A stretch of 64,000 nt of DNA from Bacillota bacterium (GTDB taxonomy: Bacteria > Bacillota > Clostridia > Christensenellales > CAG-138), in assembly GCA_023390655.1 (NCBI GenBank), contig JAEWCL010000026.1:60763-124762 (forward strand). The letters run 5' to 3'. Both the position numbers and the translations under genes were made by a program. Each line of letters starts with the position of its first letter. The first letter of the stretch is position 1. The notes below the pieces were generated by a model, which saw only the letters and a list, made by a program, of their open reading frames with translations, was not told where the DNA came from and made no database searches. Shown piece by piece: positions 13,685 through 53,133 of the stretch.

Positions 13685-13699
13685 TCACCTCGTGTACAC

Positions 13700-13728: not shown

Positions 13729-13776
13729 GTTGCCCAGCGGAATGGAAAAACCCGCCGGTTGCAGGCAGGAGACCCG

Positions 13777-29845: not shown

Positions 29846-30197
29846 AACCCCTTACGCCTTTTCAATATTCGCCCCCACGCCGGAATGTCGCAGTACGGCT
29901 GGGAGGCGGTCTTTTAGCTGTTTTTTCGTTCCCGATAATCCGCCGGTTCGTTCTGAAAATTTTTCTGCGGACACGCCGCCGGATACTGCAGCTTGCGGTA
30001 TAACGCGCTTGTACGGCGCTGTCCATACCCTGTACAGTCTGGCACACAGTGCTTATGAAACTATTTTTTTTATGTGTATTCAGGTACATGGCCGGGTATG
30101 CGGAACATGTTTTTCAAGAAATCCACACAAACTAGTCTTGTTCTTTGCCAATGAAGAAAAATGGGCTGGAATGACTATCCCTTGGAGGTACGATTGC

Positions 30198-31262
30198 ATG
30201 AAAACGGAACAAGACCGGCGCAAACGCCGCCGTATTCTTTTTTTTATCAGCGCCGTAGTGCTGCTGCTTGCAAGCGCGGGCGCAGTGGAACAATTGCGGG
30301 CATCCATCCGTGACCCGATATCCGCGTTTCAGACGCCTGCGCCGCGCAGCACAAAAGCGCCTCTTTCCCAGGCGGCGGCGCCCGGCACCACGACGCTGCC
30401 CGCAACCATCGGGGAGGTTGGCCTGACCTCTTTGGAGGCGGCAAGCCCTTCCCGCCTGCTGGGAGCGGACACAATCAACATCGTGCTCATGGGCATTGAC
30501 AGCAACGAAGAGCGCGAAGAAAAAGGGCGCGGATATCGGAGCGATACCATCGCCATACTCGTCATCGACGTGGACGAGCCCTCTTGTACGATCCTGAGCA
30601 TCCCGCGCGATACCCGTGTAAAGGTGCGGCGGCTCAACGACGCGGGCAAGGTAAAAAGCACGCAGTACAACAAGATCAACTCCGCGTTCAACTTTGGCGG
30701 AGGGCCGGAAAGCCATGGCCATGAAAATCTGATCTATTCCCTGGAAAAGCTGCTGTTTGATGGGCTCGAGGGAGATTTCCACCTGACGTATTATGCGAGC
30801 ATCGATATGGACGGCATTGCAAGGTTTGCGGATGCGGTGGACGGCGTGCCCATCAAGCTTCCCTATGATATGCCGGGCTTTGGGGACAAGGGCGATACCG
30901 TCGTCTTAAAAGGCGACCAGGCGCAGAGCTTTGTCCGCATGCGCCACGGCATCACCGGCGGCAGCGATCTTGCGCGTGTCAAACGCCAGCAGTCGTTTAT
31001 CCGTGCATTTGCCTCACGCGTCAAATCCATGGGCGCTGTGGAGGCCGTGCCCAGGCTCTGGACATCGCTCAACCAATATGTGCATACCAATATCGGCATC
31101 GGGCAGATGCTGGTGCTCGGCGATCTCTTAAGCCAGCTCGATCTGAATGAGATCAAATTTATCACGCTTCCCGGGCGCTGCAAAACGATCGACAAGCGCA
31201 GCTACTTTGTGCCAAATACAGAAAAAGTGCGCGATCTCGCGCTTTCCCTGTGGGGGGAGTGA
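30198..31262 (+). CDS. LytR-CpsA-Psr (LCP) family cell-wall glycopolymer transferase
   Basis: The start at ATG 30198 follows GGAGG. It has an N-terminal TM and the LCP core INIVLMGIDSNEE...RSDTIAILVIDVDEPSCTILSIPRDT. Confidence 0.8.
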   Translation: MKTEQDRRKRRRILFFISAVVLLLASAGAVEQLRASIRDPISAFQTPAPRSTKAPLSQAAAPGTTTLPATIGEVGLTSLEAASPSRLLGADTINIVLMGIDSNEEREEKGRGYRSDTIAILVIDVDEPSCTILSIPRDTRVKVRRLNDAGKVKSTQYNKINSAFNFGGGPESHGHENLIYSLEKLLFDGLEGDFHLTYYASIDMDGIARFADAVDGVPIKLPYDMPGFGDKGDTVVLKGDQAQSFVRMRHGITGGSDLARVKRQQSFIRAFASRVKSMGAVEAVPRLWTSLNQYVHTNIGIGQMLVLGDLLSQLDLNEIKFITLPGRCKTIDKRSYFVPNTEKVRDLALSLWGE

Positions 31263-32000: not shown

Positions 32001-33284
32001 TTATTCAAAAGACACGCGCTTCATATATTTTCGCAATGCATATTCCCCATCGTGCGCAGCGCCGCAATAGGCATCGGACATCCGCCCGGCGCGCGTAACG
32101 CGGGTAATGCCCGCACGCGCGAGCAGGTTTGATAATTCCTCCCGTTCATCCTCCGCACACAACAACCCCGCCGTCTGCAAATATCCCCTATGCGGAAACA
32201 GCGTTTCCAGAAGCCGTTCGCGCGGCAGCCGCCTGACCCAGCAGTTGCGAAACTGCATGGACGCCGTCAGCGCATCATCCGTACAATACTGCACGCTTCC
32301 GCCTGTTCCTTCATACAGCCAGCCGCCTTCAAACGTGGTCAACAGCGCCTGGGTGCGTAATTTAAGCGTCAGATGCGCCTGCATCGCCGGATCGATCACG
32401 CGCGGCTCTTGCTTTGCGGCCTGTTCCAGCGCTAAAACAAAGCGCTTCGCGAATTCCTGCGCCTCGCCTTCATCCCCCGTATCCAGAAAAATCCCCTGGC
32501 AGGAGCTGCACAGCAGCTGGTTGGTTCTGCAGATATGCAGCGCCAGCGCATGCAGTTCTTCTTCCGTGCAGTCTTTTGTCACATATGCAAAGCTCAGCTT
32601 GTGCCCCCATTCGATCAGGCGCTTGTTCGGCTTTGCAAGTTTCCGGACTGCGGCTACCGCCGCATCCGATCCCCAGACGACGATCGCATCCGCAATTTCC
32701 GCCATCTCTACAATCAACGCCGTCTCCTCAGACGGATAATCAAACACATACATATACGCCGCAAGTTCGGGCGCAAGGCGGATTAACTCCCGCAGCAGCA
32801 AAACGGATAGGCCGTCCTCTCCCGCGGGCAGTTTTAAGAGATTGATATTCCCCGTGAGCAACCCTTCGATTACCGTAAACGCAGGCAGCGCCTCCATATT
32901 GCCTGCGGCGATATGGAGCAGCACGCCAAGCGGCTTCCAGCCTTCGCGCACCGCTTCCGTCCGGTTCTGCGGCAGATACGTCTCCGGTTCAAGGCAGGCA
33001 GGCCCAAGCTCGCGCTCCAGGCGCCGCTTCAAATATGCGGGATTTAGCATGGCCCTCGCTTCCGCGATCTGCCGCCAGGCCGCCTGCTCGGAAAGCCCCG
33101 CCTGCAGCAGCATGGAAAGATATTGTGCGGGATCCATCGTTTCCCTGAGCCTGGCGCACGCTGTGATGACCAGTTCTGTAAGCGGCTGCGCATGCTTTAA
33201 TGTCTCTGTAACCGTCGCACGTAGCGCTTTGAGCGCTACAAGGCTTTGTTCCCGGTCAACGATTTCCCCAAACAGCAGATTCAT
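32001..33284 (-). CDS. LuxC-like acyl-CoA/acyl-protein reductase (aldehyde-forming)
   Basis: The start at ATG 33284 (MNLLFGEIVD) lies 1 nt after the upstream stop and is preceded by GGGGG. The LuxC-like core is LLHIAAGNMEALPAFTVIEGLLTGNINLLKLP. Cys-containing segment NQLLCSSCQGIFL. Confidence 0.65.
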   Translation of the reverse strand: MNLLFGEIVDREQSLVALKALRATVTETLKHAQPLTELVITACARLRETMDPAQYLSMLLQAGLSEQAAWRQIAEARAMLNPAYLKRRLERELGPACLEPETYLPQNRTEAVREGWKPLGVLLHIAAGNMEALPAFTVIEGLLTGNINLLKLPAGEDGLSVLLLRELIRLAPELAAYMYVFDYPSEETALIVEMAEIADAIVVWGSDAAVAAVRKLAKPNKRLIEWGHKLSFAYVTKDCTEEELHALALHICRTNQLLCSSCQGIFLDTGDEGEAQEFAKRFVLALEQAAKQEPRVIDPAMQAHLTLKLRTQALLTTFEGGWLYEGTGGSVQYCTDDALTASMQFRNCWVRRLPRERLLETLFPHRGYLQTAGLLCAEDEREELSNLLARAGITRVTRAGRMSDAYCGAAHDGEYALRKYMKRVSFE

Positions 33285-33285
33285 A

Positions 33286-34398
33286 TTAGCCCCCGATCGC
33301 CTGCGCAGCGCCCGCCGCGCAGGTCTGGATGCCCCCGGCGTTTGCCCTGCCAAGAAGTTCGAAGTATGGCGCGGTGACGCCGCAGCCGCAGCGCTTTCCT
33401 TCACGCAATACGGCAATATCGTCCGTCATGACGCTCACAAACGGCACGCTTTGCATGATGGGCGTGATAAAACTCAATAATCCGGGTTCGTCATAGCCGA
33501 GGGGTTGAAGCGTCTTGATGTCCCGGATGATGACACGGCTATAGACCGGCACATGGAAATGATGCCGCGCACAGTCACAATAGGCCACCGGATGCTCCGC
33601 GGCGCTGAAAAACTCCTTGCAGGCCGCTTCTTTTATGCCCAGCGTGTCACCGATGCGCGCATACAGCTCTTCTTTTTCCACCCGCTTTCCGGCATGCTGC
33701 TTGAACCCGCCGCCCAGCAGCACGCGGGAATGCCTGTTGAGCCGCAAGCGCATGCCGTTTTCCTTGAGGGATTGCGTCAGCAGCAGCATAAAGTAGGGAA
33801 ACCCCACAAAGCGCACCGGCAGCCCTTGCTTTTCATAGCGCCGCAGCGCGCGGGAAATTCCCTCCAGATTGGGCACGTAGGTTTCTCCCGTATAGTTGAG
33901 CGCATATTCCCGGTGCACGGGCGGCGCAAAATACGTTGCGCCATACGCCGTCTTCACAGCGCCCGTCTCGATCGCAGGCGACGGCTGATAGTTGAGCACG
34001 ATATAATTGGTAGGAAGCGGAGACAGAAGACGGTGGTACGAAAAAACAGAAAGCATCATCCTGAGCCCGTAAGAAAAGCTCATATAATCAATGCCCATGC
34101 GGCTTTTCATGCCCGAAGTGCCGGAGGAGGTGGCGCGTATCAAAAAACGCTTTTCCTCCATGGAGAACAGCGGGCGCGCTTTTAAAAACAGTGTGGGCAG
34201 CACCGGAATGCGAAACAGGTCCTCAACCGTTTGCAGCATCTCCACAGCAAACGCCTCCCGTTCGAGGATGGCGCGGTATTCCGGGCAATTTTCAGAATGA
34301 AAGCGGATGTTCTCCCGAACGGCCTCCACAAACAGAGGATCGGTTCCCGGAACATCATAGGGATTGCGCGTATGAAACAGTTTCCGTGTGCAATGCAT
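33286..34398 (-). CDS. LuxE-like acyl-protein synthetase (adenylate-forming)
   Basis: 370 aa with an adenylation-type motif (TSSGTSGMKS) and overall LuxE/PaaK/F390-synthetase-like layout. It is translationally linked to the LuxC-like gene. Confidence 0.65.
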   Translation of the reverse strand: MHCTRKLFHTRNPYDVPGTDPLFVEAVRENIRFHSENCPEYRAILEREAFAVEMLQTVEDLFRIPVLPTLFLKARPLFSMEEKRFLIRATSSGTSGMKSRMGIDYMSFSYGLRMMLSVFSYHRLLSPLPTNYIVLNYQPSPAIETGAVKTAYGATYFAPPVHREYALNYTGETYVPNLEGISRALRRYEKQGLPVRFVGFPYFMLLLTQSLKENGMRLRLNRHSRVLLGGGFKQHAGKRVEKEELYARIGDTLGIKEAACKEFFSAAEHPVAYCDCARHHFHVPVYSRVIIRDIKTLQPLGYDEPGLLSFITPIMQSVPFVSVMTDDIAVLREGKRCGCGVTAPYFELLGRANAGGIQTCAAGAAQAIGG

Positions 34399-34440: not shown

Positions 34441-35217
34441 TTATGAACTGTGTAGCGCTTGCAGCAGCTCCGCAAGCGTTTTTGCGGGCAGCTGCCCGGG
34501 CGCTGAAGCCGCGCCAACCGTACCGAACGTCATCGCCGTGCCGGACACCATTCCTGCGATGCGGCTGATTGCGCCAAGCGCGCCCATGGAAATGGAGATC
34601 ACAGGCGTACCGGCATGATTTTGTGTAAACTCTTCGGAGGCGGACAACAGCGCAATCACGTCGCGCGGGGTATTGGGCATCACGGCAATCTTTACAATAT
34701 CCGCGCCTGCCTGCTGCATGGCGCGCAAACGGTGCAGCAGTTCCTCCTGCGGCGGCGTATGGGTAAACGTGTGGCTGGAAACAACCACCTTCACATTGGA
34801 CGCCCGGAGTTCCCGGATGTGGTGGACGAGCGTATCTCCACCCCTGCCAAATTCCACATCGATCAAACCGGCAAGTCCGCTTTTTGCCGCAGCAAGGTTG
34901 CTGTTCCGGTATGCTTCCATTTGCCCTTCGAACTGCCCGCCCTCGCTTTTTGTGCGGATGGTGAACAGCAGCGGCAGGTTGCCGATTGCCGTGCGCAATG
35001 CGTACAATGCATGCAGCAGGTGCGTCTCTTCCGCAAGCCCTTCAAACCAATCCGCGCGCCATTCCACAGCATCGGCCGGCGAATCTTTGATCAAAGCCGC
35101 CTGTTCGAGCAGCGCGGATTCCGTATGCCCTACAATGGGAACGATGATTTTGGGAATTCCCTCGCCGATTACAACATCATGGACGCGGACACACGTTTTC
35201 ATCAATGTTATCCTCAT
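34441..35217 (-). CDS. aroD: type I 3-dehydroquinate dehydratase
   Basis: 258 aa with IIVPIVG...VEWRADWF and the catalytic Lys region DIVKIAVMP. Confidence 0.85.
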   Translation of the reverse strand: MRITLMKTCVRVHDVVIGEGIPKIIVPIVGHTESALLEQAALIKDSPADAVEWRADWFEGLAEETHLLHALYALRTAIGNLPLLFTIRTKSEGGQFEGQMEAYRNSNLAAAKSGLAGLIDVEFGRGGDTLVHHIRELRASNVKVVVSSHTFTHTPPQEELLHRLRAMQQAGADIVKIAVMPNTPRDVIALLSASEEFTQNHAGTPVISISMGALGAISRIAGMVSGTAMTFGTVGAASAPGQLPAKTLAELLQALHSS

Positions 35218-35476: not shown

Positions 35477-36799
35477 ATGAAGGAATTGCTTTCACAATTA
35501 ATCCGAGGGAAAGAGAAACTGGCCGTTATCGGGCTTGGGTATGTCGGCCTGCCTTTGGCAAACGCATTTTCAAAAAAACTTTCTGTCATCGGCTTTGATA
35601 CCAACATGCAAAAAATCACAAAATATCTTGCGGGGATTGATCCCACCCGTGAGCTTGGCAATGATGCGGTCAAATCCTCCCCAATCCGGTTCACATCGGA
35701 CGAGGCGGATTTGAGGGCGGCAAAATTTTTTACCGTCGCCGTGCCTACGCCGGTCAATCCTGATAAGACGCCGGACCTTTGCCCTGTTATTCGCGCAAGC
35801 GAACTGGTTGGGCGCGCGCTCCGGCGCGGCTCTGTGGTGGTGTATGAGTCCACCGTATTTCCGGGCGTGACGGAAGACGTCTGCATTCCCATTCTGGAGC
35901 GCGAAAGCGGTATGAAATGCGGGCCGGATTTCAAGGTCGGCTACTCGCCGGAGCGCATGAATCCGGGGGACAAGCTGCACCGCCTGGAAAACACGCGGCG
36001 TATCGTTGCGGGCATCGACTCCGAGGCGCTGCAGATCATCGCAAGCGTATATGAGCTCATCATCGAGGCTGGCGTACATTTGGCGCCGTCCATCAAGGTT
36101 GCGGAAGCCGCAAAGGTAGCGGAAAACAGCCAGCGGGATATCAACATTGCGTTTATGAACGAGCTTGCCATGGCACTTGACCTGATGGGGGTGGATACTA
36201 TGGATGTGCTCGAAGCGATGAACACCAAGTGGAACGCGCTCGGCTTCTCCCCCGGACTTGTGGGCGGGCACTGCATCGGCGTGGATCCGTATTATTTTGT
36301 ATATGAGGCGGAACGCCTTGGCTACCATAGCCAGATCATCCTTTCCGGCCGCAAGGTCAATGATGGGATGGGGGAATTCCTGGCGGATACCGTCATTAAA
36401 AAGCTGGTACTTGCCAACAAGCAGGTCCGGCAGGCAAAAGTGGCTGTGCTGGGCGTTACCTTTAAGGAGAACTGCCCGGATGCGCGCAATTCCCGCGTTA
36501 TCGATATGATCGAGCACCTCAACGAATATGGGATCACGCCCGTTGTCAGCGACCCGATGGCGGACCCTGAGGAGATGCAGCGTGTTTACGGCGTTGCGCT
36601 TGCCCCTATGGAAGAGATACGCGATATGGATTGTGTCGTTATTGCCGTAGCCCATGAGCAGTACAGACGCATGGCCACGGCGCAGGTGGAGGCGTTGTTT
36701 GGCGCATGTCCGCATAATGAATGCATCCTGATCGACGTAAAGAGCATCCTTGACAAGCAGGCCTTTGAAGCGAAGGGCTACAGCTATTGGAGGCTGTAA
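35477..36799 (+). CDS. TviB/WbpO/CapL-type UDP-N-acetylhexosamine 6-dehydrogenase
   Basis: The start at ATG 35477 follows GGAGGA. The product is 440 aa with VIGLGYVGLPLA, VVYESTVFPG, GYSPERMNPGD, KVAEAAKVAENSQRDINIA, the catalytic-Cys segment GLVGGHCIGVDPYY, and FKENCPDARNSR. Confidence 0.8.
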   Translation: MKELLSQLIRGKEKLAVIGLGYVGLPLANAFSKKLSVIGFDTNMQKITKYLAGIDPTRELGNDAVKSSPIRFTSDEADLRAAKFFTVAVPTPVNPDKTPDLCPVIRASELVGRALRRGSVVVYESTVFPGVTEDVCIPILERESGMKCGPDFKVGYSPERMNPGDKLHRLENTRRIVAGIDSEALQIIASVYELIIEAGVHLAPSIKVAEAAKVAENSQRDINIAFMNELAMALDLMGVDTMDVLEAMNTKWNALGFSPGLVGGHCIGVDPYYFVYEAERLGYHSQIILSGRKVNDGMGEFLADTVIKKLVLANKQVRQAKVAVLGVTFKENCPDARNSRVIDMIEHLNEYGITPVVSDPMADPEEMQRVYGVALAPMEEIRDMDCVVIAVAHEQYRRMATAQVEALFGACPHNECILIDVKSILDKQAFEAKGYSYWRL

Positions 36800-36853
36800 C
36801 CTGCGAATCTGCCTTACTACTGGATACAAACAAACGAAACGGGGTGACCCGCA

Positions 36854-39067
36854 ATGATACAGCGCCTTAGCTTACGCATACTCTCCCTTTTCATGCTCGT
36901 TTTCATATTGCTTACGGGTGTCTTTGCGTGTGCAAAGCCGTTAGAACAGACGCCGGTTGAAGATGAGGCTCTCACTGGCGTCATCAGGACGGCCTTAGAA
37001 GGCGCGCAGCAGGCGGAGCTCCTTGACTCCGTGCCTACGCTTCAAAAATCCATTTCGCTTTCCTTCTTAGGCACAGCCGATGAAGCGACGATGGACAGGC
37101 TGCTTGCCCTGTTAGACGCTTATAACGTCCGCGCAACATTTTTCCTCCCCGCGATTTCCGTTGCGGAGCACCCTGCCACCGCTAAAGCAATTGCGGCGGC
37201 AGGGCATAGCCTTGGCAATTATGCGCTCAGCGGCGGAGAAGACCTGTCTCCCCTCTCCATTGAAGATGCCGCGCGCAAGCTTTCCCATGCCCAGAACATC
37301 CTTTCCGGCGTCAATCAGGAGAACCCTTCCCTGTTCGTCACAGGGGGCACACACTATACGCCCGCCGTACTGCAGACCGCCAAGGCCTGTGGCCTTTCCT
37401 ATGCCATGCGCCCCACCGCATACCTGAATTACATGAGTTTCTCCTCGCCGGGTCAGGCACAGATGTTTGCCTCGTTTACGGATTATGGCTCCCTCATTGC
37501 ATTCAAAATTGGCCAGCAGCTTACAGAAGACGAGCTTGCCTATCAGGACGAAGAAGTGATTGAGCCCGCGGAAGACCCTGCGCCCTCTGCGTCCGCAGCG
37601 CCTGCTCCTATCGTATTGCCGGAAGACTCCAATGAACGGATGCTGCTGATTTTAGACTGGCTCTTAAGCGCCTATACAACCAGCGGTTATACGTTTTTAC
37701 AGCCGGAAGAGCTTCTTGCACAGTCTGAAACCAGTTTAGCAAAGGTATTCCTTCCCGAAGACGCGCCCGTTGCGACGCCCGCAAGTGTCATCAAAAACGC
37801 GGCCACCACGCAAAAGGCTGTCTCCCTGACCTTCCAGTCCCTGTGCGAAGATGCCAAAGTGGAGGAGCTGCTTCGCATGCTCAAGGAACGCGCCATCAAG
37901 GCCACGTTCTTTGTCACGGGGGAAGATGCCGTCACACGAAAAGCCCTTATTCAGAAAATTGCACTTGAAGGCCATGAGGTGGAGAGCGGCGGTTTCTTTG
38001 CAAAAAGCCTGAACAGCACCTCTTATACGGAAGCCTGCAAATCCCTGTTTACCAGCATGGCCGCTATCAAAAAGGCTACCGGCAAAGCTCCCGGGTTTTA
38101 CCGCCCGCCGCACGGGGACGTCAATGAAACGCTGCAAAAGGCCGGTAAGGCTGTAGGCCTCACGCCGATCCTCTACAACAAATACCCGCCCATACAGAAG
38201 GAGCAGACCGCGAAGGAAGTGCTTGCGTATTTCTCCAAAGGGTTCCACCGCGGGGATATCATTACGCTGCATATGGATGAATACCGCGATCTGAATGAAA
38301 TTGTAGGCGGTATTGCGGATATCGTATTTGATACCGGTTATGGGTTTGCACCGCTTTCAGAGCTCTACGCCAACCAGTATGAGGTCAAGCCTCTTACAGA
38401 AATCGAGGGCTGGGACAATATCCGCATCAACAAGGATTACGATCCGAACGCCCCTATTAAAGGACGCAGTTTGAGCCGGGTTCCCGTCAAAGGAAAGGTC
38501 ATGTTCCTCACATTTGACGATTGGGGCGGCGATAAGCAGATCACGAGGATTTTGGATACGCTCGACAAGTATGGCGTAAAGGCAAGCTTCTTTTTGCGGG
38601 GCGCAGGGTTAGTCAACAACCCCAACCTTGCGCGCGCCATCTCGGAAGCCGGGCACGATGTATGCAACCATACCTACACGCATTCCATCATCAATACGCT
38701 TACGGCGGACGAACTGCAGGAAGACGTTTTAAAATGCCAGCAGGCGATGACAGAAGCAATCGGCCGCGCGCCGGAGCCGTACTTCAGGCCGCCTACGCTC
38801 ACCTACGACACGCCTACCACCAACGCTGTACTGGCCTGCGGGATGGAATACTCGCTTTTAAGCAATGTCAGCACCCAGGATTATGAGCGGCCCGCGGACA
38901 AGGTCATCTCCTATGCCGTCCAAAATGCCGGCCCGGGCGAAATGGTGGTGCTGCACCTGACGGACAACTCCAGCAGCGCGGACGCCTTATCTACCATTAT
39001 TGAGAAGTTAAGCGCCATGGGATATACGCTTGATAAATTGAGCAACCATCTGCCGAAGCTCCGATAA
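36854..39067 (+). CDS. secreted or lipoprotein polysaccharide deacetylase with three NodB-homology repeats (only the third has an intact catalytic motif set)
   Basis: 737 aa with a signal peptide and Cys26 (GVFAC). Repeat 3 carries TFDDWGG, HTYTH, FRPP and VVLHL. Repeats 1 (SFLGTAD, GNYALS) and 2 (TFQSLCED, HEVESGG, YRPPHG, ITLHM) lack the Asp-Asp / His-His ligands. Confidence 0.75.
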   Translation: MIQRLSLRILSLFMLVFILLTGVFACAKPLEQTPVEDEALTGVIRTALEGAQQAELLDSVPTLQKSISLSFLGTADEATMDRLLALLDAYNVRATFFLPAISVAEHPATAKAIAAAGHSLGNYALSGGEDLSPLSIEDAARKLSHAQNILSGVNQENPSLFVTGGTHYTPAVLQTAKACGLSYAMRPTAYLNYMSFSSPGQAQMFASFTDYGSLIAFKIGQQLTEDELAYQDEEVIEPAEDPAPSASAAPAPIVLPEDSNERMLLILDWLLSAYTTSGYTFLQPEELLAQSETSLAKVFLPEDAPVATPASVIKNAATTQKAVSLTFQSLCEDAKVEELLRMLKERAIKATFFVTGEDAVTRKALIQKIALEGHEVESGGFFAKSLNSTSYTEACKSLFTSMAAIKKATGKAPGFYRPPHGDVNETLQKAGKAVGLTPILYNKYPPIQKEQTAKEVLAYFSKGFHRGDIITLHMDEYRDLNEIVGGIADIVFDTGYGFAPLSELYANQYEVKPLTEIEGWDNIRINKDYDPNAPIKGRSLSRVPVKGKVMFLTFDDWGGDKQITRILDTLDKYGVKASFFLRGAGLVNNPNLARAISEAGHDVCNHTYTHSIINTLTADELQEDVLKCQQAMTEAIGRAPEPYFRPPTLTYDTPTTNAVLACGMEYSLLSNVSTQDYERPADKVISYAVQNAGPGEMVVLHLTDNSSSADALSTIIEKLSAMGYTLDKLSNHLPKLR

Positions 39068-39101
39068 CGGCAGTTTCGGCTGGGCACAGAAGGGAATCGT
39101 T

Positions 39102-40955
39102 TTGAAGAAAACCGCACCGAAGCAGGATGTATTTGCAAAGCCGAAAGCGGACCGCCGCCTGTTCGTGCATGTCCCCGACCCGGAGGGCATACGCGTTGTC
39201 GGCGACCGGCGGCTTCAAACACAAAGCGAAAAAAAGTCCAACAAGGCGACGGCGGGCTATGCGCCCGGCCTGCGTTTTGAGGGCGGTTTTCCTGTAGAAG
39301 CGGTCGTAAAAGGCAAGCATACCTTCCGCCTCCACGGAACATGCGTCGATATTTCCCAAAGCGGCATTCTGATTGCGTTTACTTCTTCTGAGGACGTAGC
39401 GCGCCTCAAGGCCGCGTCTTCTATTGTGCTGCGCTTCCGCATTCCGCCCGGCGTATTGCCCGAAGGCATGGAGTCAAAGGTGAAGATCAAGGCGGACTAT
39501 GTGCGCGATGTTGCGCTAGAAAATGCATATGGCTGCGGGTTCAAGTTCAGCATGCCGCTTGAATCCTATGTGGAGCGCTATAAGGACCGCTCGGCGCTCA
39601 CGATGTCCGCCATCATGCTGTTCTTCGTATCGCTCATCATCGTGCTCATGCGCGCGGAAAGCTTGCTATACTTCCGCTTTAACCAGCTGCTTTATCTCTA
39701 CAGCATTATGGCGGCCGTGTTCCTCTTATCCCGCTATTTCTTTGGCGCGCTCTACAGACCGATGCCCATAGACCCTTCGTTTACGCCGGGTGTGAGTATT
39801 GTTATCCCATGCTTTAATGAAGAGGAATGGATTGCGCGCACCATCCGCTGCTGTGTGGACCAGGATTACCCGGTCGATAAACTCGAGGTCATCGTCGTCA
39901 ACGATTGTTCCACGGACAATTCGGAGATGGAGATCCTCAACATGCTCGCGCGGCTCTATAAAGAATCCTCCCGTTACCTGACAAAGGAGCGCATCAAGTA
40001 CATCAGGCCCAAACAGAACGGCGGCAAACGCGAGGCCCTTGCGCTTGGCGCACGCCACGCGACGCATGAGCTGCTGGTGTTCGTAGACTCGGACAGCTTC
40101 CTCGCGCACGACGCCATCAAAAACCTTGTCCAGCCCTTCCGCGATCCAAAGATCGGCGGGGTTTCGGGCCGTACGGACGTTGCCAACACCTACACCAACG
40201 GCGCTACCAAGATGCAGGCCGTGCGCTATTACATCGCTTTCCGGATTATGAAGGCAGCGGAAGCGTATTTTGACGCCGTCACCTGCCTGTCTGGCCCCCT
40301 GGCCTGCTACCGCAGGGACATTGTGATGGAGCATATGGACGAATGGCTGGGCCAGCAGTTTTTAGGGCAGCGGGCAACGTTTGGCGACGACAGGAGCCTG
40401 ACCAATTTCGTGCTGCGCAAGCACCGCACGGCCTACCAGGATACCGCTATCTGCGCCACCATCGTACCCAATACGCATCAGTCGCTCTTAAAGCAGCAGA
40501 TGCGCTGGAAGCGTTCGTGGCTGCGGGAATCCATCATCGCGGGGCGGTTTATGTGGAAGAAGGAACCATTTATGTCCCTGTTTTTCTACATTGGGCTTTT
40601 GACGCCCGTGCTTGCGCCTGTGGTTGTGGTGTATAATCTCATCTATGTACCCATTGCGTACGGCATTTTCCCGCTGACGTTTATGATGGGCCTGCTGCTG
40701 ATGTCCCTGATGATGAGTTTTGCGCAGCTGTTTTTCCGCAAAAGCTCCATCTGGTTCTACGGCTTTTTGTTCTGCATCTACTATGAGTTTGTGCTCCTCT
40801 GGCAGATGCCCATCGCCTGGTTCACGTTCTGGAAATCCACGTGGGGTACCCGCATGACGCCGGCGGACGTCAAAGCGCAGCAGCGCCGGGAACGGCGTGC
40901 AGGGCGCATGGCCGAAAAAGCGAAAAAGCGCGCGGAAAAGGAGCTGAGCACATGA
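39102..40955 (+). CDS. processive family-2 glycosyltransferase (class I hyaluronan-synthase/NodC-like) with N-terminal PilZ-like domain
   Basis: TTG start at 39102, 617 aa. GT2 core IVIPCFNEE, VVNDCSTD, FVDSDS, SGPLACYRR, GDDRSLTN, QQMRWKRSWLRES, about 6 TM helices, C-terminal WGTR. The N-terminal ~160 aa are beta-rich with DISQSG (DxSxxG). Confidence 0.75.
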   Translation: MKKTAPKQDVFAKPKADRRLFVHVPDPEGIRVVGDRRLQTQSEKKSNKATAGYAPGLRFEGGFPVEAVVKGKHTFRLHGTCVDISQSGILIAFTSSEDVARLKAASSIVLRFRIPPGVLPEGMESKVKIKADYVRDVALENAYGCGFKFSMPLESYVERYKDRSALTMSAIMLFFVSLIIVLMRAESLLYFRFNQLLYLYSIMAAVFLLSRYFFGALYRPMPIDPSFTPGVSIVIPCFNEEEWIARTIRCCVDQDYPVDKLEVIVVNDCSTDNSEMEILNMLARLYKESSRYLTKERIKYIRPKQNGGKREALALGARHATHELLVFVDSDSFLAHDAIKNLVQPFRDPKIGGVSGRTDVANTYTNGATKMQAVRYYIAFRIMKAAEAYFDAVTCLSGPLACYRRDIVMEHMDEWLGQQFLGQRATFGDDRSLTNFVLRKHRTAYQDTAICATIVPNTHQSLLKQQMRWKRSWLRESIIAGRFMWKKEPFMSLFFYIGLLTPVLAPVVVVYNLIYVPIAYGIFPLTFMMGLLLMSLMMSFAQLFFRKSSIWFYGFLFCIYYEFVLLWQMPIAWFTFWKSTWGTRMTPADVKAQQRRERRAGRMAEKAKKRAEKELST

Positions 40956-42814
40956 GCAGGCCAGCCGATCCTTATATAAAGAAGCATAACAGACGCAAGC
41001 GGGTCCGCGCGGTATTCGAATGCGTCATTCTGCTGTTTGCGGCTTTCTTTCTTGTGCGCGCGTTCATGCAGGTCAAACAGTATACGCCCCCCGCTTCCGT
41101 TTCCATGAGTGCGACGACGGCGCCGGGATTTGTGGCACTTTCCTACTTTGGCGTGGAGCGCTACGACAGTTCCGATACGCTCATCAATCTCGATAGGCTC
41201 AAGGCGCATATTTCGGCACTCAAAAATTCCGGCTACATAACGGTCACGGAGCAGGAGATCATCGATTATTACAAGGAAGGCAAGCCGCTTCCCGAACGGG
41301 CACTGTTCCTGATGTTTGAAGACGGCCGCAGGGATACGGCGATTTTTACCCAGGAGGCGCTCGAAGATTACGATTACCGCGCCATGATGTTTTCCTACGC
41401 GGATAAATTTGAAAAGCGGGACAACAAGTTTTTAAACGCACAGGACCTTCTTGCCCTCAAAAAAGGAACCTACTGGGAGCTTGGCGCCAACGGCTACCGG
41501 CTTTCCTACATCAATGTGTTCGACCGGTATGAAAACTACATCGGGCACCTGGATAGCGTACAGTTTACGCTGCTTTCCCAATACCTCCGGCGCAACTATG
41601 ACCATTACCTGATGGACTTTTTGCGCGATGAGGACGGCCTGCCGCAGGAAAGCTACGAGGAGATGCTTACGCGCATCGACGCGGATTATACAAAAATGCG
41701 GGACGTCTACACAAACGGGCTTGGCTACCTGCCCCAGGTTTATAGCCTGATGCACGCGAACTCAAAGGCGGGCTACGGCACGCATGCGCTGACAAGCGCA
41801 GAAAATGAAAAAAATATCCGCGCGCTGTTCACGCTCTGTTTTAACCGCGAGGGGGACAGCCTGAATCAAGCCGATACCCCCGTCTATGATCTGACCCGCA
41901 TGCAGCCGCAGGCGCACTGGCAGACAAACCACCTGTTGATGCGCTTGTGGGACGATACCGGAAACGCGATGGCGTTTGTAGAGGGCGACGCACAGCAGGC
42001 AACTAAGTGGACGCTCCATACGGGCGCTGCGGAGTATCAAAAGAATCGCATCCTCCTGACCACCCTGCCCTCGGGCTCCGGGCGCATTGTAAACAACGCC
42101 GTGCGGGAAGCGGATATAAGCCTAAGTGCAACGCTCAAAGGCAATCTCTATGGCGCGCAGGGCGTTTATCTGCGCGCGGACGAGGCGCTTTCCTCCTACG
42201 TGTATGTCGGCATTCAGGATAAGACCCTGGAAGTCAGCGAGGCTGTCGGCGGGCATGTGACGGTCCTTGCAACGATCGATCTGTTTGACTTCTTCCATGA
42301 AGCAGAGCGCACCGTAGCGGAGGATGAAGCGCAGAGCCTGCTTGCAGCGAAAGACGTTACCGCGCAAAGCCAGCTTGATGCCGCAATTAACGCGAAGCTG
42401 CAGCAGCGCGCACAGGCGCTCACAGGCAATGCCGCAAGCGCCTCCTCTTTCTCTGGCGAAGCCTACCGCCCTGAAACCGATCTTTCGGATTCCGGCTTGT
42501 ACAAGCTGCATGTAACGCTCAAAGGCGACACGCTGGCTGTTGCCATCAACGGCACGACCGTGCTTGGCGGGCAGGCGGTGCATGTGTTATCGCCCGGCGC
42601 TGTGGCGCTCGAGGCCGCCATGTCCCACGGGAATTTCAGCCAGCGCAACCTGTTTGACGATGTGTATGACGGCGTGTTTGAGGATGTGTCGGTGACGAGC
42701 GCGGACGGTGCGCGCGTATTGTATACCAACCGCCTGAGCGAGAAGGAAGCGCTGCTTGCCGATGCCAAACGCATTTGGGAAGACGTGATCAACTGGTTCA
42801 TCAACGTATTTTAA
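40952..42814 (+). CDS. membrane-anchored NodB/PgaB-like protein with C-terminal beta-sandwich-like domain
   Basis: The ATG at 40952 overlaps the synthase stop (ATGA). The product is 620 aa with an N-terminal TM (VILLFAAFFLVRAF). The deacetylase-like segment is ALFLMFEDGRRDT (TFDDG becomes MFEDG). The C-terminal 250 aa are beta-rich. Confidence 0.55.
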   Translation: MSRPADPYIKKHNRRKRVRAVFECVILLFAAFFLVRAFMQVKQYTPPASVSMSATTAPGFVALSYFGVERYDSSDTLINLDRLKAHISALKNSGYITVTEQEIIDYYKEGKPLPERALFLMFEDGRRDTAIFTQEALEDYDYRAMMFSYADKFEKRDNKFLNAQDLLALKKGTYWELGANGYRLSYINVFDRYENYIGHLDSVQFTLLSQYLRRNYDHYLMDFLRDEDGLPQESYEEMLTRIDADYTKMRDVYTNGLGYLPQVYSLMHANSKAGYGTHALTSAENEKNIRALFTLCFNREGDSLNQADTPVYDLTRMQPQAHWQTNHLLMRLWDDTGNAMAFVEGDAQQATKWTLHTGAAEYQKNRILLTTLPSGSGRIVNNAVREADISLSATLKGNLYGAQGVYLRADEALSSYVYVGIQDKTLEVSEAVGGHVTVLATIDLFDFFHEAERTVAEDEAQSLLAAKDVTAQSQLDAAINAKLQQRAQALTGNAASASSFSGEAYRPETDLSDSGLYKLHVTLKGDTLAVAINGTTVLGGQAVHVLSPGAVALEAAMSHGNFSQRNLFDDVYDGVFEDVSVTSADGARVLYTNRLSEKEALLADAKRIWEDVINWFINVF

Positions 42815-42871
42815 CGCAAGGATTGATAAACCCGGAACAAGGATGTACTTCTGATAGAGGGGAACTACTCT

Positions 42872-43987
42872 ATGCATACTGGATACCGCGGGAGTCTGCG
42901 TTTTTTGATTTCCATTTTCATCCTGTCCATGTTATTGCTGGGGTGCACTGCGCCTGAGTTTATAACCCATACCCCAGCGCCCGTACCCGCGCTTTCCCCT
43001 GCGCCGGTGCAGTCTGCGCCCGTTCCGGAGGTTATGCCTGAAGCAGCGCCGCTTCCTCTTTCCGCATGGGGCGTGTATTGGGACAGTGAACCCGCTGTAA
43101 AGGAGCTGGAGATCCTCTCCCCTTCTCTAAACAGCATCAGCGCCTTTTCCATGCTGTTTGACGCGCAGGATGGAATGTACCTGCCGGACCAGACAATTGC
43201 CCTCATTCGGCAGTTGCAAGAATCTTTTGGAGAAACGAAGGAAATTTACCTCACGTTTGTCAATGATATTGCGTTGGAGGACGGCAGCTTTTCCCTCAAG
43301 GACGTCGGCCTGCTCGAGCGGATTTTTGCAAGCGATCAAGCGATGGAGGCGCATATTGCGGATATGGTCGCTCTCACACAGGCTGCCGGGTGCGGCGGCA
43401 TCGAGCTTGACTATGAGGCCGTTAAACGCAACGCTGCGCTCTGGGAGCCGTATGGCCGGTTTATTGAAAAGCTGTATGCCCGCGCAGGCGAGGCAAACTT
43501 AATGTTGCGCGTGGTGCTTGAACCTGCTTCGCTTGGAAAGGTTGCATATCCAAACGGCCCCGCGTATGTGGTGATGTGCTACAACCTCTACGGCTCGCAC
43601 AGCGGCCCCGGCCCCAAGGCGGATGCGGATTTCATCCGCGGGCTCGCGCAAAAAAGCAGCGGCATTTCGAATACTGTGTTCGCCTTTGCCACCGGCGGAT
43701 TTGACTGGGACAAGGTTGAGACTGCCCGGCAATTGACGCAGTCGGAAGCGGAAGCGCTCGCAAAGCGCGTCGGCGCAACGACCGCGCGTGACGCGGCAAG
43801 CGGCGCGATGCAGTTTACCTACAAGGAAAACAATGCCCCGCACACCGTCTGGTATGCGGATGGGGAAACGCTTGCCCTTTGGATGCATACCGCGCGCGAA
43901 GCGGGTATCACGGACTTTGCCCTCTGGCGTACAGGCGGCAATACGGAGGACGCGCTCAAACACGTCCTGGAGGCCGCACAGCCATAG
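42872..43987 (+). CDS. GH18-like (chitinase-fold) lipoprotein
   Basis: 371 aa with lipobox LLLGC and a Pro/Ala linker. The GH18 DxxDxDxE region is present as GCGGIELDYE, with the terminal Glu retained. Confidence 0.6.
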   Translation: MHTGYRGSLRFLISIFILSMLLLGCTAPEFITHTPAPVPALSPAPVQSAPVPEVMPEAAPLPLSAWGVYWDSEPAVKELEILSPSLNSISAFSMLFDAQDGMYLPDQTIALIRQLQESFGETKEIYLTFVNDIALEDGSFSLKDVGLLERIFASDQAMEAHIADMVALTQAAGCGGIELDYEAVKRNAALWEPYGRFIEKLYARAGEANLMLRVVLEPASLGKVAYPNGPAYVVMCYNLYGSHSGPGPKADADFIRGLAQKSSGISNTVFAFATGGFDWDKVETARQLTQSEAEALAKRVGATTARDAASGAMQFTYKENNAPHTVWYADGETLALWMHTAREAGITDFALWRTGGNTEDALKHVLEAAQP

Positions 43988-44276: not shown

Positions 44277-44322
44277 GAAAAAACGCAGGCCGGCTCGTTT
44301 TCGAACCGGCCCACCTTTTTTA
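44277..44322. terminator. bidirectional intrinsic terminator (thrS on minus; EPS locus or intergenic transcript on plus)
   Basis: GAAAAAAC-GCAGGCCGGCTCGTTTTCGAACCGGCCCACC-TTTTTT. Confidence 0.75.
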
Positions 44323-44332
44323 TGTAATTAAT

Positions 44333-46270
44333 TTACGCGTGCACCTTATCCGCAATTTCCTTCTGTATCTTCGTCAGGAACGCCTCGAGCTGCATCGTGC
44401 CAAGGTCTCCCTCGCTGCGCGAGCGCACGGCCACCACGTTCTGTTCGGCTTCCTTGTCGCCGATGATAAGCATATACGGGGTCTTCTGCATCTGCGCCTC
44501 ACGGATTTTATAGCCGATCTTTTCGTTGCGCAGGTCGCACTCCACACGGATACCCGCATCAAGCAGCGTTTGCCGGATGGCGTTGCAGGCGTCGTGGTTG
44601 CGGTCGGTCATCGCCAGCACCTTCACCTGTGTTGGCATCAGCCAGGTAGGAAGCGCGCCGGCGTACTTTTCAATCAGCAGCGCGAGCGTACGTTCATAGC
44701 AGCCGATGGACGTACGGTGGATGACGATGGGATGCTTCTTCTCACCATCGCGGTCGGTATACACCATACCAAAACGCTCCGCAAGCTGGAAGTCGATCTG
44801 TATGGTGATGAGCGTATCCTCCTTGCCGTAGACGTTGCGAATTTGGATATCGAGCTTGGGGCCGTAGAACGCCGCCTCACCGTCCGCTTCCGTGAAGGGG
44901 ACCTCCAGGTCGTTGAGAATGGTGCGCATCATATCCTGCGTCTGTTCCCAGCTTTCCTTGGAGCCGATGTATTTCTCCTTGTCGTTCTCATCCCACTTGG
45001 AGAAGCGGTAGCTCACATCGTTCTCAAAGCCAAGGGTTTTGAGCATGAACTTCGCAAGGTCCAGACAGCCCTTGAATTCTTCTTCCACCTGCTCGGGCAG
45101 CACGGCAAGATGCCCTTCTGAAATGGTGAATTGCCGCACGCGGATCAGCCCGTGCATTTCGCCGGAGGATTCGTTGCGGAACAGCGTGGACGTTTCATTG
45201 AGGCGCATGGGGAGATCGCGGTAGGAACGCGCCCTGTTGAGATACGCCATGAACTGGAACGGGCAGGTCATGGGACGCAGCGCAAAGCACTCCGCCTCTT
45301 CATCATCGGGATCGCCCATGACGAACATGCCGTCCCGGTAATGGTCCCAGTGGCCGGAAATCTTATAGAGATCGGATTTTGCCATCAAGGGCGTCTTTGT
45401 GAGCAGGTAGCCGCGCTTTTGCTCCTCATCCTCCACAAAGCGCTGCAGCAGCTGAATAACGCGCGCGCCCTTCGGGAGCAGGATGGGCAGCCCCTGGCCG
45501 ATCACGTCCACGGTCGTAAACATTTCAAGCTCACGCCCCAGCTTGTTGTGGTCGCGCTTTTTGGCCTCTTCGATCTGCTGGATGTGCGCTTCAAGCTGTT
45601 CTTTTGCGGGAAACGCCGTGGCGTAAATGCGCTGGAGCATCTTGTTCTTCTCGCTGCCGCGCCAGTATGCGCCCGCAAGGGACAGAAGCTTAAAATGCTT
45701 CACCTTCTGGGTGTTGCCAAGATGAGGACCTGCACACAGGTCCATAAACTCACCCTGCTTGTAGAACGAGATCACCGCGTCCTCGGGCAAATCTTCAATG
45801 AGTTCCACCTTATAGGGTTCGTCCTTTTCCCGCATGAGCCGGATGGCCTCATCGCGCGGGAGCTCAAAGCGTTCCACACGCAGGCGTTCCTTCGATATTT
45901 TTGCCATCTCTTTTTCGATGGCTTCAAAATCCTCCAGCGTAAACGGGCGGGGCGTATCAAAATCATAATAGAAGCCGCTGTCAATGGCGGGGCCGATGGC
46001 GAGCTTCGTTTCCGGGAACAGACGCTTGACCGCCTGCGCCATCACATGCGCCGCAGTGTGCCGGAGCGTCCAGCGGCCGCCCTCATCCTCCCATGTGAGC
46101 AGGCGGACGATCGCGTCCTCTACAATGGGCGCAAAGGCGTCCACAAGCTTGCCGTTTACTTCGGCTGCAAGCGCAGCCTTGTAGGCTTCCTCATCCAGAA
46201 TCTTTGCGATATCCAGCGCGCTCACGCCGCTATCAAACGCGTGCACCTTTCCCTGATAGGTAATATTCAT
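44333..46270 (-). CDS. thrS: threonine--tRNA ligase
   Basis: The start at ATG 46270 (MNITYQGKVH) follows AAGGAGA. The product is 645 aa with a TGS domain, class II motifs (FRNESSGEMHGLIRVRQFT) and an anticodon-binding C-terminus. Confidence 0.93.
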   Translation of the reverse strand: MNITYQGKVHAFDSGVSALDIAKILDEEAYKAALAAEVNGKLVDAFAPIVEDAIVRLLTWEDEGGRWTLRHTAAHVMAQAVKRLFPETKLAIGPAIDSGFYYDFDTPRPFTLEDFEAIEKEMAKISKERLRVERFELPRDEAIRLMREKDEPYKVELIEDLPEDAVISFYKQGEFMDLCAGPHLGNTQKVKHFKLLSLAGAYWRGSEKNKMLQRIYATAFPAKEQLEAHIQQIEEAKKRDHNKLGRELEMFTTVDVIGQGLPILLPKGARVIQLLQRFVEDEEQKRGYLLTKTPLMAKSDLYKISGHWDHYRDGMFVMGDPDDEEAECFALRPMTCPFQFMAYLNRARSYRDLPMRLNETSTLFRNESSGEMHGLIRVRQFTISEGHLAVLPEQVEEEFKGCLDLAKFMLKTLGFENDVSYRFSKWDENDKEKYIGSKESWEQTQDMMRTILNDLEVPFTEADGEAAFYGPKLDIQIRNVYGKEDTLITIQIDFQLAERFGMVYTDRDGEKKHPIVIHRTSIGCYERTLALLIEKYAGALPTWLMPTQVKVLAMTDRNHDACNAIRQTLLDAGIRVECDLRNEKIGYKIREAQMQKTPYMLIIGDKEAEQNVVAVRSRSEGDLGTMQLEAFLTKIQKEIADKVHA

Positions 46271-46334
46271 TGTTCTTCCTGGTTCTCCTTTCGCTGTGTG
46301 GCCTGTTTGATAAATAACTGTTGCAGCTTGCTTT

Positions 46335-46571
46335 TTGCATAAAAAAAGCCCCTTGCACTTGCAAGGGACGGGATCACAACGCTCCCGCGGTTCCACCCTA
46401 CTTGTTGTAAAAACCACTCGTCGGCGCGATATCGCACGCTACGCGCTACAGTCAATGGGCTGGTGTTCACGGTTTGCCGCACGCATGCGCTTTCAGCCTA
46501 AGGCGCAATTCTCTTTCGCTGCCGCCGGGGATACTCCCAAAGCCGTTCAAAATCCCACGTCATCCTGCGAT
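46335..46571 (-). promoter_or_regulatory. T-box leader (Thr, ACC specifier) with terminator/antiterminator
   Basis: On the minus strand: an AGAGA-type stem I start (GCGAAAGAGAATTGCG), GTGAACACCAGCC with ACC (plus 46462-46464), the T-box sequence AGTAGGGTGGAACCGCGGGAG (46403-46384), and terminator CCCTTGCAAGTGCAAGGGGCTTTTTTT (46369-46341). Confidence 0.85.
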
Positions 46572-52464: not shown

Positions 52465-52474
52465 GTCTGTTCCT

Positions 52475-53062: not shown

Positions 53063-53133
53063 TATAAAGGCCTCCGTGCGCACCAACCCGCAGTTCACCC
53101 CTTCTGGAAATTCTGTTGCTTTCCAAGGCTGCT

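Follow-up and report, generated by a model that had tools for sequence, protein, structure and literature searches.

Which polysaccharide is made, and under what control, by a bacterial locus that places a glycosyltransferase resembling hyaluronan synthase (HAS) among deacetylase-like and hydrolase-like proteins? The question is raised by five genes, here referred to as g1 to g5, in a stretch of 64,000 nt from contig JAEWCL010000026.1 of a Bacillota bacterium (Clostridia; Christensenellales); this stretch is called the window, and all coordinates are positions in it. An earlier note on the same DNA had read the genes as encoding, in this order, a dehydrogenase of nucleotide sugars, a secreted protein with three NodB domains, a processive glycosyltransferase of family GT2, a membrane-anchored NodB/PgaB-like protein, and a lipoprotein of the glycoside hydrolase family 18 (GH18) fold. 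From this it had proposed the synthase-dependent production, de-N-acetylation, and trimming of an acidic polymer containing N-acetylhexosamine (HexNAc). That reading proved to be largely right, with four corrections: the synthase carries a PilZ domain, there is one deacetylase module predicted to be active, the conserved unit is a core of four genes to which the dehydrogenase is an accessory, and the distribution includes diderm bacteria. The interpretation favored here, with somewhat more confidence than doubt, is that the locus would form a self-contained, synthase-dependent system gated by cyclic di-guanosine monophosphate (c-di-GMP), predicted from sequences and structural models to make a partly de-N-acetylated polymer based on N-acetylglucosamine (GlcNAc) that may also hold a HexNAc-uronate.

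The synthase and its N-terminal domain

The central gene of the locus is g3, the product of which matches GT2 and Chitin_synth_2 in Pfam. Its best NCBIfam model is NodC (TIGR04242, 188.6 bits), for which the cut-off of 550 is not reached; the same holds true for PgaC/IcaA (TIGR03937, 118.1 bits; cut-off 422.3) and for BcsA (TIGR03030, 39 bits; cut-off 699), from which g3 also differs in having its PilZ domain at the N-terminus, not at the C-terminus. Among PDB sequences, Xenopus HAS1 (E = 1.7e-36) and the Chlorella virus HAS (2e-34) are closest, as compared with 3e-6 for BcsA. When the full-length AlphaFold2 (AF2) model was compared by fold using Foldseek, hyaluronan synthases were again the best matches, and all matches were GT2 enzymes. 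Among proteins encoded on annotated plasmids, the nearest named relatives are Bacillus HasA (35% identity over residues 147-487) and rhizobial NodC (30%). The motifs DSD, SGPL, GDDR, QQMRW, and WGTR do not vary among 26 homologues of g3, and hydrophobic segments are found at residues 165-183, 196-217, 492-510, and 522-545. Thus, g3 has the core of the class I HAS enzymes, i.e., DxD, GDDR, QxxRW, and WGTR in a catalytic domain flanked by membrane segments. This bears out the earlier classification as a processive GT2 of the class I HAS/NodC type, with HAS as the closest relatives.

An extra cytoplasmic domain at the N-terminus of the synthase had been recognized before; the domain is indeed present, and its identity, which had been missed, is PilZ. 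In the window, the g3 product scores 19.4 bits against PF07238 (gathering threshold 22.5), and homologues that are 83% and 59% identical reach 26 bits. PilZ was matched in all 18 family members tested (E < 0.01; best 5.4e-10), and the AF2 model has a beta-barrel at residues 60-150 with a predicted local distance difference test score (pLDDT) of 81-88. The stretch D83-I-S85-Q-S-G88, which is invariant in the family, corresponds to the (D/N)hSxxG motif for c-di-GMP. A profile of the g3 N-terminus retrieved no PilZ structure among PDB sequences, so that Pfam and the AF2 barrel are the basis of the assignment. With a PilZ domain at this position, the system carries its own candidate c-di-GMP receptor, and the contrast with c-di-GMP systems that had been made before was drawn without noticing it.

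Ahead of the barrel lies an arginine-rich leader, of which D17-R18-R19, P25-D26, R31, and D35-R36-R37 (the latter two arranged as R31xxxD35-R36-R37) are invariant across the 26 homologues at 58-84% identity. Disorder is predicted for this leader (pLDDT below 50 in the AF2 model), which is a candidate for a non-canonical c-di-GMP-binding segment. A GGDEF protein of 367 amino acids is encoded on the same contig (62873-63976, minus strand; 118.8 bits) and has an intact GGDEF motif, so the organism probably makes c-di-GMP. To the first 200 amino acids of this protein, no sensor domain is assigned.

The conserved module and its products

To assess the neighborhood of g3, one genome per species was scanned, which gave 420 relatives of g3, and the best 80 loci were analyzed. 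In the 49 loci that are well flanked (at least 6 kb upstream and at least 5 kb downstream), a NodB gene directly precedes the synthase gene in every case, g4 directly follows it in 48, and g5 is present in 46. All four genes occur together in 46/49 loci from Clostridia, Negativicutes, and other Firmicutes. The conserved unit is therefore made up of four genes, coding for the deacetylase, the PilZ-synthase, g4, and the GH18 lipoprotein, and this arrangement recurs in dozens of genomes, more than expected by chance. Genes outside the module vary from locus to locus and are unrelated housekeeping genes, which indicates that the module is self-contained. Of the five-gene neighborhood anticipated earlier, the four-gene core thus stood, and the dehydrogenase, found in 24/49 loci, did not.

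The core is also found on an 897-kb megaplasmid of Paenibacillus cellulositrophicus, an organism of the Bacillus class (L084, NZ_CP045296.1, 261845-269475), where PGAP gives it generic names (polysaccharide deacetylase family, twice; glycosyltransferase family 2; glycosyl hydrolase family 18 protein). At this locus, no gene is listed in a gap of about 1.3 kb between the deacetylase and synthase genes; the gene table is incomplete, and a pseudogene or an unlisted gene may explain the gap.

The gene most closely tied to the synthase gene is g4, with which g3 shares a 4-nt ATGA overlap. In 12/12 other loci inspected, the two genes overlap or are separated by at most 16 nt, so the translational coupling proposed before is kept across loci. 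The g4 product has no Pfam match, and with PgaB (TIGR03938) it scores 37.5 bits over its N-terminus only, below the cut-off of 321.9. An AF2 model built from an alignment of 37 sequences (pLDDT 86.8; predicted TM-score 0.85) comprises an N-terminal transmembrane helix, a fold of the carbohydrate esterase family 4 (CE4) at residues ~58-336, a beta-sandwich resembling carbohydrate-binding module (CBM) 66 at residues ~350-595, and a C-terminal amphipathic helix. Foldseek matched it to PgaB, IcaB, and PplD (TM-score ~0.75) and to CBM66 (0.77). Motifs that are invariant or nearly so are FEDGRRDT, GTNGYR, NHYLMD, LMHSN, NREG, RMQPQ, NHLLMR, and SQRN...DDVYDG. In the first of these, which is invariant, motif 1 of CE4 enzymes reads E-D in place of D-D. 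When the g4 family was aligned with canonical CE4 enzymes using hhalign, only motif 1 was aligned; no His-His motif occurs at the expected distance in the family alignment, and the Asp-His-His metal site of PgaB is not recognizable in g4. The His of the PgaB WHNV stretch, the proposed catalytic acid of PgaB, is replaced by Phe. Judged from these residues, g4 is unlikely to be a classical metal-dependent deacetylase: the resemblance to PgaB described earlier holds for the fold, and the membrane anchor was confirmed.

The g4 family is large, with about 205 clusters (at 50% identity) matching at E <= 1e-30. In a second family of ~645-700 amino acids (P0449, P0455, P0460-P0501), similarity to the g4 profile is confined to the first ~180 positions of that profile (E-values of 1e-47 to 1e-85), which span the anchor in the membrane and the N-terminal half of the CE4-like domain; otherwise, the second family has a different architecture.

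The three NodB domains described for g2 are present, each being a Polysacc_deac_1 domain above the Pfam cut-off when scored singly (50, 78, and 103 bits). However, two of them are degenerate, as found by aligning the three domains with one another and with a solved CE4 enzyme. In domain 1, TFDD has become SFLG, NHTYTH has become NYALSG, and RPP has become VTG; in domain 2, TFDD and NHTYTH are replaced by TFQS and SGGFFA, and RPP and LxH are kept. Domain 3 carries TFDD, HDVCNHTYTH, FRPP, and VLH, scores 103.5 bits against PF01522, and has the features of a CE4 enzyme. Of the three, this domain alone has sequence matches among solved CE4 enzymes (6hm9 at 1.5e-25, SpPgdA, and PdaA), and it is kept in 70 related loci. 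In 12/12 orthologues inspected, a TFDD-like motif occurs once in the C-terminal domain, and a second one, in domain 2, was seen in L010 only. To speak of four NodB-like modules in g2 and g4, as before, thus overstates the catalytic capacity of the locus, since the motifs are intact in domain 3 of g2 only. As for its location, g2 has a single N-terminal hydrophobic segment (residues 9-27) followed by ...GVFAC, with IVAC or LASC in the closest relatives, which suggests that g2 is a lipoprotein in the clade of the window; this agrees with the secreted protein or lipoprotein that had been proposed. Orthologues from Clostridium have an N-terminal membrane anchor instead. An assignment of g2 as a PdaB equivalog was rejected, as the cut-off is passed merely by summing the three domains.

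The g5 product of the window scores 21 bits against PF00704 (gathering cut-off 29.6). A profile of its family, built from 28 sequences, matches solved GH18 enzymes (YdhD at 1.4e-18, 5jh8, and SleL/YaaH). The family motif is DGIEIDYE (GGIELDYE in the window), in which D-Y-E is invariant and the catalytic D-x-E is thus kept, and the Cys of the lipobox LLLGC is nearly invariant. At the level of the family profile, g5 is therefore a GH18 member with the D-x-E signature and a predicted hydrolase, and its description as a GH18-fold lipoprotein was substantiated by the profile together with the lipobox.

The dehydrogenase gene g1 encodes three UDPG_MGDP_dh domains. Its best NCBIfam model is TviB (NF011729, 427.5 bits, end-to-end coverage); other models scored ~200 (WecC, a UDP-ManNAc dehydrogenase), 121 (TuaD), and 22-141 bits (Ugd). 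It passes the general NDP-sugar dehydrogenase model TIGR03026 (375 bits; cut-off 190), and its best PDB relatives, at ~1e-50, are Cap5O, a UDP-ManNAcA dehydrogenase, and an NDP-GalNAcA dehydrogenase. Because the equivalog cut-off of 592 is not reached, g1 is named TviB/WbpA/WbpO-like and not TviB itself. A better alignment with UDP-glucose dehydrogenases, which would have spoken against the TviB/WbpO type assigned earlier, was looked for and not found, and the PDB ranking agrees with the scores; g1 does not qualify as the hasB-type UDP-glucose 6-dehydrogenase expected as a partner in a hyaluronan operon. In the 24 loci that have it, a g1 homologue lies within 10 kb of the core, in 22 of them directly upstream on the same strand. 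Its presence follows the clades of the synthase tree: it is found in the clade of the window, in Negativicutes, and in several clades of Lachnospiraceae and Oscillospiraceae, and not in the main Clostridium clade. Hence, g1 is an accessory gene for precursor supply, and an acidic polymer with HexNAc-uronate should not be generalized to the family as a whole.

The system had been discussed as a Gram-positive one, but Negativicutes have it too, with an added gene. In eight loci (L059, L014, L055, L065, L070, L071, L073, and L079), a large protein with tetratricopeptide repeats (TPR) is encoded directly upstream of the dehydrogenase. Seven of these are labeled as Negativicutes (Sporomusa, Anaerospora, Megamonas, Selenomonadaceae, and others), and the eighth is labeled only as Bacillota; all eight fall in one clade of the synthase tree, and the gene is present in none of the remaining loci, all of them apparently monoderm. 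The TPR protein of Sporomusa malonica (L059:2569-5901) has ~1100 amino acids, of which the C-terminal 280-440 are conserved across the eight loci, and alternating hydrophobic residues lead up to its terminal ...THYF, as is typical of outer-membrane barrels. Its C-terminal 441 amino acids have no relative among PDB sequences and no Pfam match, and because of this the barrel assignment rests on composition and the terminal ...THYF. The protein is probably an outer-membrane exporter with a barrel of the PgaA/BcsC/PelB type. By analogy, its gene provides indirect evidence that the polymer would be exported.

Layout of the locus and neighboring genes

The features of the locus are listed in Table 1. 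The five genes are co-directional and are spaced exactly as had been reported, with gaps of 54 nt and 34 nt, the 4-nt ATGA overlap, and a gap of 57 nt. Likewise, all of the strings that had been quoted are found in the translations (GLGYVGLP, GGHCIGVDPYY, FKENCPD, DSD, SGPLACYRR, GDDRSLTN, QQMRWKRSWLRES, and WGTR). On the source metagenome contig, an independent gene caller predicted g3 and g4 identically and started g5 at 42905, giving 360 amino acids (11 codons shorter). A Shine-Dalgarno-like sequence is present 5' of every start from g1 to g5.

Table 1. Coordinates in the window of the five genes, their domains, and the downstream hairpin.
Feature	Position	Strand	Size or residues	Description
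g1	35477-36799	+	440 aa	TviB/WbpA/WbpO-like, predicted UDP-HexNAc 6-dehydrogenase
g2	36854-39067	+	737 aa	Secreted, probably lipoprotein; three NodB/CE4 domains
g2 NodB domain 1	37037-37402	+	aa 62-183	Catalytically degenerate
g2 NodB domain 2	37802-38167	+	aa 317-438	Catalytically degenerate
g2 NodB domain 3	38483-38851	+	aa 544-666	Canonical CE4 de-N-acetylase module
g3	39102-40955	+	617 aa	PilZ-GT2 membrane synthase; TTG start
g3 Arg-rich leader	39150-39212	+	aa 17-37	D17-R18-R19...P25-D26...R31...D35-R36-R37
g3 PilZ beta-barrel	39270-39569	+	aa ~57-156	Invariant D83-x-S85-x-x-G88
g4	40952-42814	+	620 aa	Single-pass membrane protein; CE4-fold and CBM66-like
g5	42872-43987	+	371 aa	GH18-family lipoprotein
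GC-rich hairpin	44285-44314	.	13-bp stem	3' of g5; A-run before, T-run after

The operon is flanked by the housekeeping genes aroD (34441-35217) and thrS (44333-46417), both on the minus strand. The hairpin downstream of g5 reads gaaaaaac-GCAGGCCGGCTCGTTTTCGAACCGGCCCAC-ctttttta, and because of the A-run before and the T-run after the stem it is probably a bidirectional terminator common to the operon and the convergent thrS. No Rfam family was matched at the gathering threshold anywhere in the window, so no c-di-GMP riboswitch is placed ahead of the operon. Promoter-like matches were not more common than in shuffled sequence, and no promoter is therefore named.

Upstream of the operon, at a distance of about 4 kb, lies a gene of the LytR-CpsA-Psr (LCP) family (29805-31262, plus strand), which has counterparts at 57-74% identity in L004 and L005. 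As it is syntenic in these closest relatives only, it is probably unrelated to the module. Between the LCP gene and aroD, two overlapping genes (32001-34398, minus strand) code for a LuxC-like acyl-CoA reductase (222 bits) and a LuxE-like acyl-protein synthetase (133 bits). The same arrangement is found in L004 and L005, and such a pair of the fatty-aldehyde type is unexpected for an anaerobic Firmicute. Elsewhere in the window, the region 52001-54000 has a GC content of 46%, as compared with ~55% in the rest, and contains short minus-strand open reading frames (51943-53694); it may be acquired DNA. Finally, two Lon-type protease genes are arranged in tandem on the minus strand (11297-15513), one for a full Lon of 795 amino acids and one for a shorter LonB-like protein of 578 amino acids, consisting of Lon_C and an AAA/Mg-chelatase-like domain.

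Proposed function, alternatives, and relation to known systems

In the system proposed here, g3 would polymerize a beta-linked, HexNAc-containing chain from UDP-sugars and translocate it through its own membrane channel, and the fused N-terminal PilZ domain would make synthesis responsive to c-di-GMP. Made together with g3 and staying next to it by means of its membrane anchor, g4 would take the emerging chain at the outer face, its divergent PgaB-like domain and CBM-like beta-sandwich acting as a co-polymerase or chaperone. The intact CE4 domain of g2 would then partly de-N-acetylate the polymer, to which the two degenerate NodB domains probably bind, and the GH18 lipoprotein g5 would trim or release the chain. 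In this organism, as in roughly half of its relatives, g1 would supply a UDP-N-acetylhexosaminuronate, most simply UDP-GlcNAcA. This compound (or UDP-GalNAcA) may be a second substrate of g3 where g1 is present, so the product of this organism may be acidic. GH18 catalysis is substrate-assisted and requires a 2-acetamido sugar at the cleavage site, and CE4 enzymes de-N-acetylate HexNAc. Taken together with the grouping of g3 with HAS, NodC, and chitin synthases, this would point to a beta-linked, GlcNAc-containing, partly deacetylated chain. The composition and synteny of the module are consistent with those of synthase-dependent exopolysaccharide (EPS) systems, i.e., a GT2, a c-di-GMP receptor, modifying and cleaving enzymes, and a TPR/porin protein in diderms. 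We infer every activity in this scheme, the identity of the polymer, the binding of c-di-GMP, and a complex of g3 with g4 from sequences and models. The logic of synthesis, de-N-acetylation, and trimming put forward earlier is thereby largely retained, except for the acidic polymer as a general property.

Several observations weigh against this interpretation. For enzymes of the HAS/NodC/chitin synthase type, the product is not assignable from sequence. As g1 homologues are missing near the core in half of the loci, it may be that g3 does not use the g1 product as a substrate, and as g4 lacks recognizable CE4 metal ligands, the role given to it is a guess. The full-length AF2 model of g3 is poor (mean pLDDT 59) and thus uninformative on the docking of PilZ to the synthase. 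In addition, the canonical RxxxR motif of PilZ is not recognizable in g3, with R58 alone at the usual position, and the PilZ score of g3 in the window is under the Pfam cut-off. Moreover, RiGT2, a clostridial PilZ-GT2 that does have the canonical motifs, neither bound c-di-GMP nor depended on it in vitro, and yet its PilZ domain was essential for activity (PMC10374906). These last three points would favor the same machinery with a PilZ domain that is structural or regulatory and does not sense c-di-GMP, synthesis being constitutive or under transcriptional control. Such a system is considered unlikely here, since the DxSxxG motif is invariant, a GGDEF protein is encoded in the genome, and the disordered DRR...R...DRR leader is invariant over distant homologues, as would be expected of a segment that wraps around a ligand.

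Other alternatives concern the product instead of its control. Of the NCBIfam models, NodC matches g3 best (189 bits), a NodB-family gene always precedes the synthase gene, and a GH18 enzyme could cut a polymer to oligomers, so that short, partly deacetylated chito-oligosaccharides might be made as signals or primers and not as a matrix polymer. However, the NodC score is far under its cut-off and solved HAS match better; the deacetylase g2 is secreted or membrane-anchored, whereas NodB is cytoplasmic; and the export of a polymer would agree with both the CBM-like g4 and the TPR/barrel gene present in diderms, which makes a NodBC-like pathway improbable. An envelope or spore glycan, i.e., a teichuronic-acid-like wall polymer attached via the nearby LCP enzyme or a polysaccharide of a spore layer, is judged to be very improbable. 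It would agree with the position of the LCP gene, which is kept in the closest relatives, with the sporulation deacetylases PdaB and PdaA as the best NCBIfam matches of g2, and with the spore GH18 enzymes YdhD and SleL/YaaH as the best solved relatives of g5. Nevertheless, the LCP gene is unlinked beyond the closest relatives, the products of synthase-type GT2 enzymes are not linked to undecaprenyl as are the substrates of LCP ligases, and PdaB is reached through the three-domain sum only. The module also occurs in Megamonas, Selenomonadaceae, and Absicoccus, lineages that are regarded as non-spore-forming. The least credible of these alternatives is a true hyaluronan capsule (glucuronic acid and GlcNAc) of the has type, even though the nearest relatives of g3 among solved and annotated proteins are hyaluronan synthases and several sources label its homologues 'hyaluronan synthase'. 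The identity to HasA is ~35% over the catalytic core only, the linked dehydrogenase is of the TviB type and not Ugd/HasB, and no hasB or hasC is present; furthermore, the deacetylase, GH18, and PilZ are not known as parts of has operons, and GH18 enzymes are not known to cleave hyaluronan.

The c-di-GMP-gated, GlcNAc-based system favored here resembles several described systems and belongs to none of them. With class I HAS (streptococcal, Bacillus HasA, Chlorella virus, and vertebrate) and has operons, the locus shares a GT2 core with DxD, GDDR, QxxRW, and WGTR between transmembrane segments and a dehydrogenase encoded alongside. Unlike these, it adds the N-terminal PilZ domain to the synthase and has a TviB-type dehydrogenase, and we know of no has operon that includes a CE4 deacetylase, a CE4-like/CBM partner, or a GH18 hydrolase. 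As in the rhizobial NodC/NodB pair, a NodC-like GT2 adjoins a NodB-family deacetylase. Here, in contrast, the deacetylase is multi-domain and extracytoplasmic, PilZ, g4, and GH18 are extra, and a polymer would be expected instead of a tetra- or pentamer. The poly-N-acetylglucosamine (PNAG) systems pgaABCD and icaADBC also produce a HexNAc polymer in a synthase-dependent manner with partial extracellular de-N-acetylation; the g4 fold resembles the deacetylase domains of PgaB and IcaB, the TPR and putative barrel protein of diderms resembles PgaA, and pga is under c-di-GMP control. The differences are that g3 is not of the PgaC/IcaA type (118 vs 422 bits), that g4 lacks CE4 metal ligands, that the hydrolase is a GH18 enzyme and not the GH153 domain of PgaB, and that Pga senses c-di-GMP at the PgaC-PgaD interface, whereas sensing here would be by the fused PilZ domain.

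PilZ domains fused to a processive GT2 are found in BcsA-BcsB, in the clostridial CcsZABHI (PMC7710045), and in the Romboutsia RiGT2 (PMC10374906), where a membrane-anchored carbohydrate-binding partner likewise adjoins the synthase and a dedicated hydrolase is present. In these systems, unlike here, PilZ is C-terminal and the product is O-acetylated; the locus has an N-terminal PilZ, a HAS/NodC-type catalytic domain, and predicted de-N-acetylation. No relation of g4 to BcsB was found in sequence or fold searches, and CcsB was not compared directly. In the Pss system of Listeria and the Yda system of B. subtilis, a BcsA-like synthase is combined with a BcsB-like partner, and PssE/YdaK is a separate, degenerate GGDEF receptor, whereas the candidate receptor here is the fused PilZ domain. 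The operons of these systems, pssA-E/pssZ and ydaJKLMN, are Gram-positive c-di-GMP-dependent EPS operons that encode a GT2, a putative deacetylase, and a hydrolase (PMC4125290). The combination of GT2, deacetylase, and hydrolase in a synthase-type operon is thus shared, but scoring against NCBIfam detected no sequence-level membership of the operon products in Pss/Yda. In the Vi antigen locus tviBCDE, TviB is the best match of g1; the TviC epimerase, the TviE polymerase, and the Vex exporter have no counterpart in the operon. Two further reports concern the Lactobacillus Gts system, which has a degenerate-EAL receptor (PMC6123363), and the proteobacterial "bacterial chitin synthases", which are unrelated acquisitions from eukaryotes (PMC5122149).

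Membership in has, NodBC, Vi antigen, ica/pga, and bcs was rejected, and the cut-offs for NodC, PgaC/IcaA, BcsA, TviB, and PgaB were all missed. No curated family model describing the system was found, and public annotations are either generic or assigned by similarity ('hyaluronan synthase', 'glycoside hydrolase', 'GH18'). The earlier note had not recognized any described operon in this combination of genes, and neither was a description found in full-text literature, although one may exist in subscription journals. Despite its wide distribution, the system seems not to have been studied.

Few synthase-dependent EPS systems are well understood, namely, those for cellulose, PNAG, alginate, Pel, and the Listeria Pss polysaccharide, and very little is known about such systems in strict anaerobes, e.g., gut and rumen Clostridia, acetogens, and Negativicutes. 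More tentatively, and with doubt outweighing confidence, the loci may represent a widespread new family of c-di-GMP-gated systems in monoderm and diderm anaerobic Firmicutes, with a new polymer, a double-DRR leader, and a pseudo-deacetylase/CBM partner. It should be kept in mind that a GT2 combined with a deacetylase and a hydrolase is a theme to be expected and that the module recombines known parts, with everything beyond its domain content being an inference. If the proposal is true, the new polymer would be a chitin- or hyaluronan-like GlcNAc chain, partly deacetylated and containing GlcNAcA where the TviB-like gene is present. A HAS/chitin-synthase-type enzyme would then be under the control of an N-terminal PilZ domain with a variant c-di-GMP motif, namely, a non-canonical nucleotide-binding leader of the double-DRR type, and the pseudo-deacetylase/CBM protein, in which the CE4 fold would have been repurposed, would be a new kind of synthase partner. 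As a compact and widely distributed module, the locus would make the c-di-GMP-controlled formation of a matrix by anaerobes accessible to experiment.

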